Assembly (NCBI GenBank): GCA_963703365.1
Contig: OY969815.1
Span: 2,814,910-2,878,909 of the forward strand
DNA length: 64,000 nucleotides
Direction: 5' to 3'
Source of the DNA: an uncultured Bacteroidota bacterium
Lineage (GTDB): Bacteria > Bacteroidota > Ignavibacteria > Kryptoniales > JAKASW01
The first letter of the stretch is position 1. Each line of letters starts with the position of its first letter. The position numbers and the translations under genes were made by a program. Of the stretch, positions 4,381 through 64,000 are shown piece after piece. Under the pieces are notes generated by a model that saw only the letters and a program-made list of their open reading frames with translations, was not told the DNA's origin and ran no database searches.

Positions 4381-5393
4381 TTCTGTTCCTTGCGAAACTG
4401 GTCGAGAGCGGACTCAACTTGCTTGAGCAGATCTTCCGAATACAATTTTCCGACAAGCATCTGGCGTGCTTCCTCGCCGGTCTGATAATAATAAGCAAGC
4501 TCGCTGTTGGAACGCGGATGAGTAATCGTGATTCCTTTAGATTGCAAAGTCTTAATTGCTTTCTGGTTATCTTCGCGGCTTAATTGTGTGAGCTTTGTCA
4601 GATAAATCTGTCCGTTTTTCGTCAGTATCTGTTGCAGGTCCTGTGGGAGAGTATCAAAAAACTTTTTAGAAATTAAAACACCACCAGAGGAGTTAGCAAG
4701 CGGGACATCAAGCATGTATTTGACCTTTGTGAACCATTGTAACGCAATCATTGCAAGCGGTGGTGAGTACACACAATTGATCATTCCAGTCTGAAGGGAG
4801 GAATTCACGTCTATAATCGAAAGTGGGATCGGTGCAAGTTTGAGGACTTTGAAAGAAACCTGCGCTATTGGGTCACCTTCCCACATCCATGCTCTTACAT
4901 CCTGCATGTCGTTCACAGAATAAATCGGTTTTTGCGTGAACACATAAACAAATCCCACCTCAGCCCAACCGAGTAGGACGAACCCGCCTTGCTCAAACGC
5001 CTTACTAAATTCAGGAGTGAACTTATTGTAAATGTAATCTATCTCCGCTGTGTTGTGAAACAAAAAGGGGCTATCGAGAATCCGCTCTTCCGAAGCGACC
5101 TCACCCATTCCAACACCGGTGAAGCCTGCAGATTGGTATTGTCCGATTCTTATTTTTCTCATGACATCTTTTTCGTCTCCCGCAACTCCGCCGGAGTAAA
5201 ACTTAAACCCGAGTCTTCCACCGCTCTCTTTCCTTATGGCTGCATCGTATTCCTTCATCACATTCATCCATGTAGTCCCTTCTGGAGCGACAGTAGCAAA
5301 CTGTATGGTGTACTGTTGGGCACAGACCGGGATGTCCGATAAAATAAAAATCAGCGAGAGAAAAATTGTTTTCTTAAATATTCTTAACATCAT
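4377..5393 (-). CDS. dctP: TRAP transporter substrate-binding protein (DctP/TatP type)
   Basis: 338 aa with a signal peptide and DctP-like sequence (ATVAPEGTTWMNVMKEY...). Operon context supports the call. Confidence 0.8.
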   Translation of the reverse strand: MMLRIFKKTIFLSLIFILSDIPVCAQQYTIQFATVAPEGTTWMNVMKEYDAAIRKESGGRLGFKFYSGGVAGDEKDVMRKIRIGQYQSAGFTGVGMGEVASEERILDSPFLFHNTAEIDYIYNKFTPEFSKAFEQGGFVLLGWAEVGFVYVFTQKPIYSVNDMQDVRAWMWEGDPIAQVSFKVLKLAPIPLSIIDVNSSLQTGMINCVYSPPLAMIALQWFTKVKYMLDVPLANSSGGVLISKKFFDTLPQDLQQILTKNGQIYLTKLTQLSREDNQKAIKTLQSKGITITHPRSNSELAYYYQTGEEARQMLVGKLYSEDLLKQVESALDQFRKEQK

Positions 5394-31904: not shown

Positions 31905-31979
31905 GGGCTCTTAGCTCAGCTGGTTCAGAGCGCTTGCTTCACACGCAAGAGGTCACTGGTTCGAGTCCAGTAGAGCCCA
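31905..31979 (+). tRNA. tRNA-Val (anticodon CAC)
   Basis: Hand-folded 75-nt cloverleaf: acceptor GGGCTCT/AGAGCCC, D arm GCTC/GAGC, anticodon stem CTTGC/GCAAG with loop TTCACAC, T arm ACTGG-TTCGAGT-CCAGT. CCA is not encoded. Confidence 0.9.
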
Positions 31980-32173
31980 CAGGAGCAAGGGTCATCCCGC
32001 TTTACGGGGATAGTGCCCACAGAAGAGGTTTTAAAGAAATTGGATTCTAAAAAGTTGTTTTTTAAATATTTCAACTCTATGGAAAATGATAACATGACAC
32101 AAACGGAGGGGATAGGGAGACTTTGATAGTGTTTATCGTGAATAAGTCTCACTAAAAAATTGGCGAGGAAAAA

Positions 32174-59648: not shown

Positions 59649-59696
59649 ACAAACAGCTGTCGCGAGCAATAGCAAACGACCCAATTAGCGTATGAG

Positions 59697-59732
59697 CAAA
59701 AAAGGGAGGTATCATACCTCCCTTTTTTGTTT
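59697..59732. terminator. Bidirectional intrinsic terminator
   Basis: An A-run precedes the stem GGGAGGTA-tca-TACCTCCC, and TTTTTTGTTTT follows it. Confidence 0.7.
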
Positions 59733-59757
59733 TCGGACATCGAACTTGAGATGGAAT

Positions 59758-59985
59758 TTACTTCAGATAAACAAGTCTTTTCACAGAAATAAATTTACCT
59801 GATCCATCTTTGCCCTGAGCCTGAATTCGACAGAAATAAATCCCGCTGCTCAATCCAGACGGATTCCATTCGACGCTGTATCGACTCGCCGTTTGCATCC
59901 CATCCACTAAATTTGTCACCACTCGACCGAGTACGTCGTAAATCGTGACCTTCACATATGCATTCTTCGAAGTGCCATTTCTTAT
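59758..59985 (-). pseudogene. Orphan T9SS C-terminal sorting domain (3' remnant of a truncated secreted-protein gene)
   Basis: The frame reads (stop)IRNGTSKNAYVKVTIYDVLGRVVTNLV...GIYFCRIQ...SVKRLVYLK. It is homologous to the C-terminal sorting domains of the genes at 27650 and 62255. No upstream cargo domain exists, and the frame is closed at 59986-59988, abutting the stop of the next gene. Confidence 0.65.
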
Positions 59986-60359
59986 TTAAGGTCATACACC
60001 CCTCTTGCAACTCTTTTCAGTCTCGCGCTTTTCTTGTCACACTCCTGAGACAGGATTGCGCCGATTGTGTGTACTTTGTCAGTAGTGTTACCAAGACTAA
60101 TCTTTTTCTCTTCAACAAACTCAAAGACTTCTTCATTTGTAACATTCCGACCAATTCTATGGATCAGTTCAATCGTTGCGTCAACAACGCGACCGCGAAT
60201 TGTGTTTGAGCCCTTATGAGGAGAGGAACCCGAAATAACCTTTATCTCGTTCGCATGTTCACCTTTGCGAATAGCGATTAATTGAATGAGAAGCTCACGC
60301 TCCTTTTCCAACTCACCGAGCCGAGCCTCTAACGTTTCAACCGATAATACTGTGGACAT
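59982..60359 (-). CDS. Hypothetical 125-aa protein: N-terminal coiled coil plus HARE-HTH/Mrr_N-like winged helix (tentative)
   Basis: The N-terminal segment LEARLGELEKERELLIQLIAIRK looks like a coiled coil. The C-terminal part ...ATIELIHRIGRNVTNEEVFEFVEEKKISLGNTTDKVHTIGAILSQECDKKSARLKRVARGVYDL fits the HARE-HTH pattern. GGAGAAG RBS and a strong promoter are present. Confidence 0.45.
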   Translation of the reverse strand: MSTVLSVETLEARLGELEKERELLIQLIAIRKGEHANEIKVISGSSPHKGSNTIRGRVVDATIELIHRIGRNVTNEEVFEFVEEKKISLGNTTDKVHTIGAILSQECDKKSARLKRVARGVYDLK

Positions 60360-60385
60360 TTTAGCACTTCTCCATTATTGGTATA

Positions 60386-60414
60386 AATATAAGCAACGTA
60401 CCTTTACTTGTCAA
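60386..60414 (-). promoter_or_regulatory. Sigma70-like promoter TTGACA-17-TATATT for the 59982..60359 gene, -35 embedded in palindrome ACTTGTCAAGT
   Basis: On the minus strand the sequence reads cTTGACAagtaaaggtacgttgctTATATT. The 11-bp palindrome lies at 60406-60416. Confidence 0.4.
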
Positions 60415-60487
60415 GTGTTTTGAAAAATAGATTTTGGAACGCTAAACTTAAGCGTAACTCGCCATATTGAAAAATCTTACGGAACAC

Positions 60488-60516
60488 TTGCTTTTTAATT
60501 TTATCCATTGTAAATT
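60488..60516 (+). promoter_or_regulatory. Putative promoter TTGCTT-17-TAAATT for the DUF4065 operon
   Basis: The hexamers were read directly, about 27 nt upstream of the AAAGGAGGT RBS and start at 60544. Confidence 0.3.
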
Positions 60517-60543
60517 GTTGTCGTCACAAAAAAGGAGGTTAGA

Positions 60544-61017
60544 ATGTATGATGTTAAGGCCATCGCCAATTACTTTATTGACAGAGGGCTTAATGAGAAT
60601 ATTGAAATAAGCCCTATGAAGCTTCAAAAATTGCTCTTTTTTGCCTATGGCTTATATCTTACTGGAAAAGGTGAGCAACTATTCAGTGATCGTTTTGAGG
60701 TATGGCCATATGGGCCGGTACTTTCACAGCTTTACCACCAGCTCAAAGGATATGGAAGCAATCCTATTAGGAATTTTGTGCCGGACTTTGATATGGCATC
60801 TGGTGAAGAATTCGTACAAACTGTGGACAAGGATGACAAGGAAGTTAATGATTTTTTAAATGGGTTCTGGAATACCTACAAGGGATATACCGCGACCCAA
60901 TTATCTAATGCGACTCATTTAGAGGGCACCCCTTGGAAAAAGGCGTTTGATAATCAGGAAAAGGTTATTTCTGACAAATATATCGATGAGTATTTTAGAA
61001 ATCTGACTAAGAACTAA
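60544..61017 (+). CDS. DUF4065 / Panacea (SocA-like) antitoxin-domain protein
   Basis: 157 aa. The sequence NYFIDRG..ISPMKLQKLLFFAYGLYL...LFSDRFEVWPYGPVLSQLYHQLKGYGSNPI matches the characteristic DUF4065 pattern (LKLQKLLYYAQG...W..GPV...Y..FK.YG). A strong SD (AAAGGAGGT) precedes it. Confidence 0.75.
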   Translation: MYDVKAIANYFIDRGLNENIEISPMKLQKLLFFAYGLYLTGKGEQLFSDRFEVWPYGPVLSQLYHQLKGYGSNPIRNFVPDFDMASGEEFVQTVDKDDKEVNDFLNGFWNTYKGYTATQLSNATHLEGTPWKKAFDNQEKVISDKYIDEYFRNLTKN

Positions 61018-61412
61018 TGGCCAAATCTCAATTTCCTTCTTTTGCCGATCTCCTAAAGGCCTCTATTGCTCCGCTGAAAACTGGGAGCACTGTTCGTGAT
61101 CCTCTGTCAGAAGCAGAAGATGAGAAGTATGAACAGGATAAAAGAGAGCGCGAAGCGGAGCTTGAAGCTCAAGAGTTAAAGCAGAATATCTCCGAAAGGA
61201 AAAAGTATGCTTCAAAGACATTCAGACTTATTTGCTGGTGGTTAGGTGGGGTGTTCTTTTTACTTTTTCTGGATGGTTTCAACGCCTATTGGTTGCCGTT
61301 TACATTCCAACTCAAAGAGAATGTCCTTTTAGCGGTAATCGGAGGCACAACGCTAAACGTAATTGGAATTTTTATCTTTGTAATGAAGTATTTATTTAAC
61401 CCTAAAAAGTGA
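61017..61412 (+). CDS. Hypothetical 131-aa membrane protein (charged coiled N-terminal half plus 2 TM helices); candidate toxin/effector partner of the DUF4065 protein
   Basis: Its start overlaps the upstream stop in TAATG. EAEDEKYEQDKREREAELEAQELKQNISERKK is followed by TM segments LICWWLGGVFFLLFLDGF and VLLAVIGGTTLNVIGIFIFVM. I recognise no family. Confidence 0.5.
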   Translation: MAKSQFPSFADLLKASIAPLKTGSTVRDPLSEAEDEKYEQDKREREAELEAQELKQNISERKKYASKTFRLICWWLGGVFFLLFLDGFNAYWLPFTFQLKENVLLAVIGGTTLNVIGIFIFVMKYLFNPKK

Positions 61413-61505
61413 GTTGTTTTCAGATTAAAACAAGAAGAAACTATTTAAAAGTCCTATATATCTGTGAGATAATTATGGTAGTTTTGGACTAAAGGAATAA
61501 AAAAA

Positions 61506-61532
61506 CCGAGCAGTCATTACCTGCTCGGTTTT
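61506..61532. terminator. Intrinsic (bidirectional) terminator after the DUF4065 operon
   Basis: AATAAAAAAA precedes the stem CCGAGCAG-tcattac-CTGCTCGG, and TTTTC follows it. Confidence 0.7.
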
Positions 61533-61668
61533 CAAAATCAGCGGAATTCTGTCCGGCATAGTCTTGCATTTGAGAATCTCGCTCTGAAGTGCTTCTTAAT
61601 ATAAGGGGCTATTGGGCCTGATGCAAGACCTTTCTTAAGAATAAGATAAGAAAGGTGGTGAATGGTCA

Positions 61669-61797
61669 ATGGCTGAACAAACAGCGCGGCCGGGTTACCA
61701 TCTCATTTTCAGGGCATTCATAACCTTGAGAAATGGGAAACGTATCTATGCAAGTAGCTACGGTCTCAGGGCGTTTGCTATTTGGGTGAAAGATTAG
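61669..61797 (+). CDS. Unlisted 42-aa ORF (hypothetical small basic protein)
   Basis: Hand translation gives MAEQTARPGYHLIFRAFITLRNGKRIYASSYGLRAFAIWVKD*. It is preceded by AAGGTGGTG. A hairpin follows: AATGGCACA at 61815-23 pairs with TGTGCCATT at 61845-53, then TTT. Confidence 0.3.
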   Translation: MAEQTARPGYHLIFRAFITLRNGKRIYASSYGLRAFAIWVKD

Positions 61798-61896
61798 CCC
61801 GTCTAAGTAAATGCAATGGCACATTCGATGAGTGTCTGGTTGGGTGTGCCATTTTATACTATTACTTTATAACTAAAATCAAGGGAGTAAAATCTT

Positions 61897-62094
61897 ATGA
61901 GTAGCGATTCGGCAAACATAGTTGCAAGCAATCTAACGGTCGCTTATTGTCTAACTATTAATCGGCGATTAGGGCCCGGCACAGGTACGATCTCAACTCA
62001 GGAAACGGAATTTAGCAAAGAAAACATCTTGTCGATCTATCGAAAATTTCTGCAAGAAGTTAAAGGCCCACAAAAGTATGGAAGCCGGCCATAA
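61897..62094 (+). CDS. Hypothetical 65-aa protein
   Basis: The ORF has AAGGGAG 8 nt upstream of the ATG. I recognise no family. Confidence 0.3.
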   Translation: MSSDSANIVASNLTVAYCLTINRRLGPGTGTISTQETEFSKENILSIYRKFLQEVKGPQKYGSRP

Positions 62095-62168
62095 AATCAA
62101 ATTGAGCCACTTAGTCATAAACTGAGCCTTTACCCAAATCCCGCCTACGGGATCTTCGATCGGTTCTC

Positions 62169-62189
62169 TTGTCCCGCACGGCGGGACAA
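62169..62189. terminator. GC-rich hairpin between convergent genes (possible terminator, no clear U-tract)
   Basis: The stem is TTGTCCCGC-acg-GCGGGACAA. A second hairpin, ATCCCG-ccta-CGGGAT, lies at 62138-62153. Confidence 0.35.
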
Positions 62190-62254
62190 AAGAAACTCCG
62201 ACCATGGTGGCGAGGAATCCGTCCATCTTTTCGGGCAGCCTCACGTCGCTCACT

Positions 62255-64000
62255 TTACTTCATCAGCACAAGTTTCTTTACCGACATAAACTTCTCACGG
62301 TTATTCTCATCAGCGATGATTCGGCAGAAATAAACTCCGCTGGCAAATTTTGACGCGTCAAAAGTAACGCTGTAACATCCTGTGTTTTGTTTTTGATTCA
62401 CCAATATTGCCATTTCTCTTCCAAGCACATCGTAGATTTTCAACGTAACGTGGCTGGCAACTGACAACTGATAGCTGATTACTGTGGAAGGATTGAAAGG
62501 GTTCGGATAATTCTGACTCAACTCAAATGAATTCGGTACGCCATTCCCGATTTGTTTCACGCCGAGAACTGTAATATTGTCAGTTCCGCCGGCTTCAATG
62601 TATCTCGCCTTGAACTCTTGCAAATACAAGTTTGCGATGCGCTTGCTGTGAATGATGAGTTCGTTCTCGTTATTGGAAGTCTCCGCAGCGTCCGACCAGT
62701 TGTGCGAACCGGTCATTACAATCTCGTCTGCGTTCGGAGATTCGGCGTCGATAACAGCGTACTTGTGGTGAAGAAGCCCTGTGAGATTGCTTCCTTTCAA
62801 ATGAACATCGATCCCATTTGTTTGCAGGAAACTAAATTGATTCCCGGTGTCGGTATTGTTGTCCATCACGACTCTGACTTTATCGCCTGCCGTTTTTTTC
62901 AAAACGAGTTCCTGTGCCAAGTCGCCGCGTGTAAAAGTAAGCATGCAAACATTGATTGAGCTTGTAGCAGTAGCAAGAGTTTGATATATGTGAAGCGTGG
63001 TTTGGTCCGACGGGCTGAAGTAAAGCTCGACCGGTGTACCGTTGACGTTAAACTTGTGCGGCGTGATGTCTATCTTGCGGGCACCGAAACGGGATTGAGC
63101 TGAATCGGGTGTGTCTGTCGAGCTTCCCCCCATTTCGTTGAACTCCATCGTGTAAGCGTTCGCGAGCGCTTTGTCCTGCATCTCGATTGAATTCTGCGCG
63201 TCATCGTTGTCGCCCGGATCGGTGGCGTTCCATGATCCTGTCCAGACCCAATCGTCGGTGAAGGAGCTTGTATCGCGGAAATCGAATATCGCAAACTTGT
63301 TGTGCATCAATCCAATTCCCGCGTTGACCGGATCGTAAGTGTCGGTGATGAACGGAATGTTGTTTTTCATTGTGTCCATCGGCGCTGTGCCAGCATTATC
63401 GTTTTCAACGATCATTCTGATTCTCACCCCGCGGCTCTTCGCGCTAACCAAAGCATTCGCGATGGCGCTGCCGACATTCCCACTGAAACTATACAGTGCA
63501 AGATCGATTGAATATTTGGCTGCATTAATTCTCGAGAGAAATTTGTTCAATATGTCCACCGTCCGAGCGGTCTCACCGTTAGCGACTGAAGTATCCACAG
63601 ATTTGTTAAAATAAACGTTTATAATCCCCGTTGTGCCGGAAGGAGATTCGGTGCTAAAGATCGCGTCGCCGGTTTGATTCGTGCCGGAAGTGTCTGTGGC
63701 AGCAACCTGATAATGGTACACTGTTGCAGGCCATAATCCACTTAAAGTGATCTCGTGAGCAGTGTCGGGAGATGTAATTACAACGGAATCCTTGTAGGCA
63801 GCACTTGCACCGTACCTGACAACGGCATGGGATGGCGATGAGGTTCTGAAGGAAATCGTGACTGAGTTGGGCAGAATATTTTTTTCAGTTGGCGCCGAGA
63901 CAAAGGCAGGTCCTGCGCTCGTGATAATGTCGGATTGGATTCTGGCTTCAACTTCGTAGTTAGACGTGTACGGAGGCGTCATTGTCGAAGTATAACCGGG
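62255..64000 (-). CDS. Secreted phospholipase D/nuclease-superfamily protein (two HKD motifs) with FN3-like N-terminal domain and T9SS sorting domain; 5' end beyond the window
   Basis: HKD motifs LMHNKFAIFD and LLHHKYAVID.....GSHNWS are present. The C-terminal sorting domain reads NPFNPSTVISYQLS..VTLKIYDVLGRE...GVYFCRI...KKLVLMK. The frame is open to the window edge and there is no signal peptide at the listed M. Confidence 0.75.
   Translation of the reverse strand, partial: PGYTSTMTPPYTSNYEVEARIQSDIITSAGPAFVSAPTEKNILPNSVTISFRTSSPSHAVVRYGASAAYKDSVVITSPDTAHEITLSGLWPATVYHYQVAATDTSGTNQTGDAIFSTESPSGTTGIINVYFNKSVDTSVANGETARTVDILNKFLSRINAAKYSIDLALYSFSGNVGSAIANALVSAKSRGVRIRMIVENDNAGTAPMDTMKNNIPFITDTYDPVNAGIGLMHNKFAIFDFRDTSSFTDDWVWTGSWNATDPGDNDDAQNSIEMQDKALANAYTMEFNEMGGSSTDTPDSAQSRFGARKIDITPHKFNVNGTPVELYFSPSDQTTLHIYQTLATATSSINVCMLTFTRGDLAQELVLKKTAGDKVRVVMDNNTDTGNQFSFLQTNGIDVHLKGSNLTGLLHHKYAVIDAESPNADEIVMTGSHNWSDAAETSNNENELIIHSKRIANLYLQEFKARYIEAGGTDNITVLGVKQIGNGVPNSFELSQNYPNPFNPSTVISYQLSVASHVTLKIYDVLGREMAILVNQKQNTGCYSVTFDASKFASGVYFCRIIADENNREKFMSVKKLVLMK

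Follow-up and report, generated by a model that had tools for sequence, protein, structure and literature searches.

The window, that is, the whole stretch of 64,000 nucleotides analysed here, comes from a 3.15-Mb metagenome-assembled contig of an uncultured Bacteroidota bacterium, which encodes T9SS-sorted proteins. Close to its right end lie two small genes on the plus strand, termed panA (ORF1) and panT (ORF2), with the following features on and around them.

59758-59955, minus strand: orphan T9SS sorting domain of 65 aa (PF18962, E 3e-7), with no cargo domain in front of it
59960-62254, about 2.3 kb: low-GC accessory islet containing p125, panA, panT and an unannotated 0.7-kb tail
59982-60359, minus strand: p125, 125 aa, transcribed divergently from panA; a promoter-like site lies in between
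60532-60539, plus strand: Shine-Dalgarno-like AAGGAGGT, 4 nt 5' of the panA ATG, read from the sequence
60544-61017, plus strand: panA (ORF1), 157 aa, stand-alone Panacea (DUF4065) antitoxin, without an extra N-terminal domain
61017-61412, plus strand: panT (ORF2), 131 aa, putative toxin of the PanT cluster T3 type
61502-61532, no strand assigned: hairpin of 12 bp, GC-rich, located between an A-run and a T-run

Both ORFs were found exactly where a preliminary description had placed them, on the same strand, and the overlap that it claimed can be read directly: the panA/panT junction is ...AACTAATGGCC, or AAC TAA TGG in codons, where the TAA stop of panA and the ATG start of panT have one base in common (TAATG), giving a 1-nt overlap. 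Its single strong Shine-Dalgarno site is likewise present, since AAGGAGGT is the sole Shine-Dalgarno-like site of the bicistron and inspection of the sequence directly upstream of ORF2 gave nothing comparable before the panT start. The terminator that it noted at 61506-61532 corresponds to the strong hairpin at 61502-61532, whose fold reaches -17.9 kcal/mol (z = -4.74 against shuffles). The consensus terminator scan scored this hairpin on the minus strand, and the plus-strand stem is followed only by UUUUC. As the A-run and the T-run stand on opposite sides of the stem, the hairpin is therefore read as bidirectional, probably an intrinsic terminator that closes the operon and is common with the convergent side.

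ORF1 is a Panacea protein. The DUF4065 assignment in the preliminary description was borne out by the PF13274 search proposed there: the SocA_Panacea model matches residues 27-132 with E 1.5e-20 and 74.6 bits (cut-off 25.7), the match spans the full-length domain (model positions 1-113), and Pfam gave no additional domain beyond Panacea. ORF1 also matches PHROG 1281 with E 2e-42, while a sequence search of the PDB returned no match. As for a PanA, which is paired on the same strand with a small partner within ~100 nt, the partner gene here overlaps by 1 nt. The NCBIfam equivalog model SocA_antitoxin (NF047745) scores ORF1 at E 3e-32 and 111.7 bits, well below its cut-off of 190 bits; therefore, ORF1 is a Panacea protein but not SocA itself, and the assignment to SocA proper, the type VI antitoxin, was rejected. 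SocA of the type VI SocA-SocB system of Caulobacter has the same Panacea/DUF4065 domain as ORF1, whereas the partner in the window is a predicted membrane hairpin. SocB is an inhibitor of the replication clamp, and SocA acts as a ClpXP adaptor and not by direct sequestration.

ORF2 had been described as a charged N-terminal half followed by two hydrophobic helices, and both the hydropathy and charge analysis and the AlphaFold2 model agree with this. Hydropathy places TM1 at ~69-89 and TM2 at ~103-125. A charged helix at ~29-66, predicted to be cytosolic, precedes TM1, and K/R-rich flanks are present before TM1 (+4) and after TM2 (+3), with a neutral loop between the two segments. The structure prediction that had been recommended for ORF2 was made with AlphaFold2 from 65 homologues; the model (mean pLDDT 82.5) has a continuous helix at 29-88, a 12-residue loop and a helix at 101-126. 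From these features we infer an N-in/C-in topology, that is, a two-TM hairpin. The columns conserved in the PanT family, taken from homologue alignments, include the juxtamembrane motif Q-x4-RK-x-YA before TM1 (Q56, R61, K62, Y64 and A65), W75 in TM1, G87 and F97 around the loop, T111, T112 and G117 inside a GGTT-x-N-x2-G stretch of TM2, and V122, Y125, L126 and F127 at the C-terminus (the YLF tail). A fold search of the ORF2 model against the PDB and BFVD gave no meaningful match, which is not surprising for a hairpin of such simple helical form, and the ORF2 sequence has no match in the PDB.

Could such a protein be a holin instead? A small two-TM protein with both ends predicted to be cytoplasmic and with a charged soluble extension has the form of a class-II-type holin, and ORF2 would then be a holin, or what is left of a phage lysis cassette, and PanA an antiholin-like inhibitor; its matches to PHROGs, weak only (E ~5e-5) and to families of unknown function, would be in line with this. 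The charged domain of PanT is N-terminal, however, unlike that of typical holins, where it is C-terminal. Within the window, no endolysin, spanin or other phage gene was found near the pair, and the constant neighbour of the family across 77 genomes is PanA and not a lysis gene. A tblastn search with ORF2 and the family consensus gave no match in phage (50,697 genomes) or plasmid collections; it should be noted that this search is insensitive, and that it also missed a homologue on the Salinibacter plasmid pSR56 which scores 2e-30 by HMM, low-complexity masking being the probable cause. We consequently consider the holin reading highly improbable.

The preliminary description could not place ORF2 in any family. 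This is right as far as curated HMM libraries are concerned, none of which knows the family (ORF2 has no significant match in Pfam, NCBIfam or PADLOC), but it is wrong for sequence collections at large. A word-indexed search with ORF2 gave 11 relatives, and the profile built from the relatives found in this way matched 4,613 cluster representatives at E<=1e-3, and 2,258 at E<=1e-10, among the 1.84 billion searched. In IMG/VR, searched by family patterns, a single relative was found in 2.9 million contigs, on a prophage-like contig with PanA upstream. The suggestion that the partner of ORF1 might be new was not upheld either, because ORF2 corresponds to a cluster of PanT toxins, T3, that is already catalogued and forms a very large family.

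A catalogue of Panacea-associated toxins, organized as PanA-PanT pairs, has been published (Kurata et al., 2022, PNAS, PMC8832971). Among the 80 loci of our genome scan described below, six strains are listed with T3 pairs in Dataset S1 of that work, as follows.

T3-listed strains: Tenacibaculum ovolyticum DSM 18103, Dyadobacter alkalitolerans DSM 23607, D. psychrophilus DSM 22270
T3-listed strains, continued: D. crusticola DSM 16708, Chitinophaga costaii A37T2, Pseudarcicella hirudinis E92

When the published A|T distances of the respective strains (-8, -38, 28, 48, -1 and -17) are measured off from the PanA stop codon, an in-frame start codon is reached in all six cases (6/6), the landing codons being GTG, TTG or ATG that open the frame of the homologue. 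The homologues in these strains match the ORF2 profile with E 1.5e-25 to 3.9e-34. Six such coincidences are not plausibly due to chance, and the ORF2 family is therefore equated with cluster T3. Apart from its homology to the listed T3 proteins, ORF2 lies directly downstream of a PanA, and its hydropathy and charge, together with the AlphaFold2 model, agree with how T3 has been described, namely with TM helices in the C-terminal part after a charged N-terminus (PMC8832971). Judged from these sequence comparisons, PanT belongs to cluster T3, and its link to the validated E. coli toxin rests on the published clustering.

That toxin is the PanT of E. coli STEC O31 (PanA-PanT, WP_000287252.1 / WP_000019185.1), where likewise the gene for a stand-alone Panacea protein precedes that for a small toxin whose N-terminus is charged and whose TM helices are C-terminal. 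Its assignment to the same published toxin cluster as the window pair is made through the six strain-matched T3 loci and not by direct alignment. The two pairs differ in gene spacing, with a 22-nt gap in E. coli STEC O31 versus the 1-nt overlap in the window, and in host, E. coli versus a T9SS-bearing uncultured Bacteroidota. Searching with blastn for a Methylomonas panAT locus in 5,426 E. coli genomes gave no match, and no E. coli entry was present among the matches listed for profile searches seeded with broad and Methylomonas-type members.

A relationship of ORF2 to cluster T12, the Bartonella apis type, was also considered and rejected. The T12 member of Aggregatibacter phage S1249 (YP_003344835) has no significant similarity to the ORF2 profile (hhalign probability 7.8%, hmmsearch 4.3 bits), and it is on this member that the absence of a significant sequence relationship between Bartonella T12 and ORF2 is judged. 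T3 and T12 were called only "potentially homologous" by Kurata et al. (PMC8832971). As a separate observation, the T12-type PanAT of the S1249 prophage lies ~2 kb downstream of a gene whose annotation is that of an Abi-alpha-like abortive-infection protein, and both are located between the repressor and integrase genes (L006 32592-34289 and 36265-37036).

The linkage of the two genes was examined in one genome per GTDB species, using a 12-member alignment, since a 43-member diverse alignment was too divergent for locus finding. In 77 of the 80 loci, a PanA homologue is directly upstream of the ORF2 homologue, the end of the PanA-homologous ORF being no more than a few tens of bases away from the PanT homologue. 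Of the three loci without an upstream PanA, one is at a contig edge. The neighbourhood comparison that had been proposed for ORF2 thus comes out in favour of a standing partnership with Panacea genes. The loci are spread over Acidobacteriota, Bacteroidota, Proteobacteria, Planctomycetota, Cyanobacteria, Latescibacterota, Nitrospirota and others, and every upstream ORF that was sampled from different phyla reaches the gathering score of Pfam PF13274 (10/10). Among six metagenome contigs with a homologue, the homologue is directly preceded by a called SocA_Panacea gene in four; the fifth is cut 127 nt upstream, where the C-terminal fragment of PanA still matches the PanA profile, and the sixth (L002) carries a PanT homologue without PanA and with a replaced N-terminus. 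Pairwise identities of PanA and PanT are strongly correlated over 76 pairs (r = 0.88, Mantel p = 0.001); therefore, the two genes travel and diverge together. The linkage of PanA and PanT is near-obligate, with co-inheritance.

The family also has variants. On plasmid pSR56 of Salinibacter ruber M8 (L089 1985-2887), a PanT-T3 variant of 300 aa lies directly downstream of PanA and has an insertion of ~100 residues, with extra hydrophobic segments, between TM1 and TM2. PanT homologues without an adjacent PanA number two or three (L022, L035, and L002 with its replaced N-terminus). Since such copies exist, either the TM hairpin is not always lethal or these copies are silent, and all three may be silent or decayed. 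The L002 homologue (5001-5369), which is downstream of a primase/AAA_25 helicase gene and is preceded by a (GTCAC)n tandem repeat at 4893-4935, may be a decayed or re-partnered copy. Panacea genes that tblastn found on Enterobacter and E. coli plasmids (L087 2123-2491 and L088 1931-2350) have soluble, unrelated partners without TM helices, which illustrates partner swapping by Panacea directly.

What, then, would the pair do? Membrane-targeting toxins occur in three validated PanA-PanT pairs, from E. coli STEC O31 (T3), Bartonella apis (T12) and Helicobacter sp. (T4) (PMC8832971). The E. coli STEC O31 PanT is a validated TA toxin, which causes membrane depolarisation and SYTOX permeability as well as an indiscriminate shutdown of transcription, translation and replication, and is rescued by its cognate PanA (PMC8832971). 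The gene order, the overlap and the shape of the toxin at the locus all match published PanAT modules and, with the 77/80 linkage, uphold the toxin-antitoxin reading of the preliminary description. Therefore, the locus is, in our judgement, very probably an intact type II PanA-PanT TA module of the T3 toxin cluster with a membrane-targeting toxin, where toxicity, membrane targeting and direct neutralisation would be expected by analogy with the published relatives. PanA has no DNA-binding domain, which counts against the reading as a TA module and leaves autoregulation unexplained.

For neutralisation, the PanA-PanT pair of Bartonella apis/choladocola (T12, NetFlax D11) was adopted as a model; it has the same architecture and a validated membrane-depolarising toxin, and its Panacea protein binds the toxin directly. 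The stand-alone Panacea contacts the membrane PanT of B. choladocola at its unstructured N-terminus and the short helix before the TM, a contact region that was predicted and then confirmed by mutagenesis (Ernits et al., 2023, PMC10440598). For the window pair, panA and panT would be transcribed jointly, with translation of panT coupled to that of panA through TAATG. PanT would be a small inner-membrane hairpin with N-in/C-in topology, whose long charged N-terminal helix stays in the cytoplasm. As long as PanA is present, its Panacea domain would bind the N-terminal and juxtamembrane region of PanT, with the conserved motif, and keep PanT harmless by blocking its insertion or oligomerisation. 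Once PanA is lost or inactivated, PanT would insert and oligomerise through the small/polar face of TM2 (GGTTxNxxG), and the oligomer could then leak ions and depolarise or permeabilise the membrane, so that growth stops. Both the PanA binding site on PanT and the oligomerisation face are predicted from sequence here.

The expected outcome, loss of membrane potential with a global shutdown, would be the same as for the type I toxins HokB and TisB and for RmrT of RosmerTA. Hok and TisB are single-TM peptides under antisense RNA control, RmrT pairs with a different antitoxin, and no sequence relationship of HokB, TisB or RmrT to PanT is present. HokB and RmrT served as comparators in the PanT papers (PMC8832971; PMC10440598).

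Is ORF2 a poison at all in its host lineage? It could be a small, non-toxic and benign membrane anchor or partner of the Panacea protein, serving to localise or regulate it; the two genes would then be linked through a two-component, membrane-associated function and not as poison and antidote. The few homologues that occur without PanA would fit, as would the great abundance and strong conservation of the family, which is unusual for a pure addiction module, and several predicted PanTs of other clusters are non-toxic in E. coli (Kurata SI, PMC8832971). However, the T3 members with a recorded result are both toxic (2/2), namely that of E. coli and the Vibrio cholerae member WP_088132352.1, scored "Toxic", and another, third T3 member was stuck in cloning; the two that were tested experimentally are both from Gammaproteobacteria and none is from the FCB group (PMC8832971). 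Moreover, the antitoxin-first order, the overlap and the patchy spread across phyla are typical of TA modules, and the conserved small/polar motif of TM2 fits helix packing or pore lining. Because of the T3 toxicity tests, we consider a benign membrane partner quite unlikely, and the membrane-targeting toxin remains the preferred reading.

The surroundings of the pair were also analysed. The low-GC islet of the preliminary description is real but modest: the GC content of 59960-62254 is 0.407, compared with 0.459 in the window overall, and a value this low occurs in just 2.3% of sliding windows of the same size. On its two sides, the islet borders on the orphan T9SS C-terminal-domain fragment and on a PLD-like T9SS cargo gene, of which it adjoins the 3' end. 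Because the pair sits between these two, the arrangement suggests that the panAT islet has taken the place of the 5' part of a T9SS cargo gene. The orphan sorting domain and that of the PLD-like gene (62255-62470, minus strand) are paralogues with ~55-60% nucleotide identity. The flanking repeats spaced by ~2.5 kb were considered as att sites and rejected, as they are the coding ends of these paralogous T9SS sorting domains and share only that level of identity. A repeat search found no attachment-site-like repeats around the islet, no integrase is among the genes called around the pair that have a Pfam match, and the islet has no tRNA gene, the sole one of the window being at 31905-31980. As for p125, no significant match was found in Pfam, NCBIfam, PADLOC or PHROGs, and a role as a third PanAT component was rejected, since no homologue exists in 84 other PanAT loci.

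The accessory setting also bears on a role in phage defence. The pair could be primarily an abortive-infection system, where PanA would sense a phage-derived cue and release or activate PanT, by which the infected cell would lose its membrane potential before the phage cycle is completed. This reading is compatible with the TA reading and differs from it only in the biological role. The Panacea domain has been proposed as a sensor by Ernits et al. (2023), and antiphage activity has been shown for RosmerTA, another membrane-depolarising TA (PMC10440598). Besides the location of the pair in a low-GC accessory islet, mobile or phage genes occur next to homologous pairs, namely an IS1595 transposase in one case and an integrase fragment with an Sf6-type terminase in another, and the IMG/VR relative is on a prophage-like contig. 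However, that relative is the only one in IMG/VR, no recognisable defence genes were found around the pair within the window, PADLOC-DB 2.0 models match neither PanA nor PanT (nor p125) at E<=1, and a literature search found no T3 PanAT reported as phage defence. Abortive infection as the primary role is therefore a tentative alternative, which we think doubtful. The more specific proposal that T3 PanAT acts as a stand-alone abortive-infection defence, in which the domain-minimal Panacea itself senses the phage cue and frees a membrane-depolarising hairpin, appears rather unlikely to us; if true, it would give a function to several thousand uncharacterised pairs across many bacterial phyla.

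The T3 TA family had been catalogued and partly validated in 2022 (PMC8832971), and what is new here is one more PanAT-T3 member, from an uncultured T9SS-encoding lineage, and not a new kind of system. PanT-T3 is large and tightly linked to Panacea, yet has no model in Pfam, NCBIfam, PADLOC or the annotated PHROGs. Consequently, both annotation pipelines and readers at first pass label it as unknown time and again, which a curated PanT-T3 model would end. The motifs Q-x4-RK-x-YA and GGTT-x-N-x2-G are concrete targets for mutation in questions of neutralisation and membrane damage.

Two minor features of the region should be mentioned. From the panAT terminator to the PLD-like gene, ~0.7 kb (61540-62254) contain only short ORFs with no family match, including one of 86 aa on the minus strand (61993-62253) and a basic one of 42 aa (61669-61797), and this content may be islet debris or small unannotated genes. 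After the DUF6580 gene, a perfect 16-nt palindrome (CAAAAAAGGGAGGTAT / ATACCTCCCTTTTTTG) is located at 59697-59729. Rfam gave only a sub-threshold sraA match (30.5 bits, cut-off 56 bits) to the palindromic terminator region at 59691-59771, and the palindrome is most likely a bidirectional terminator.
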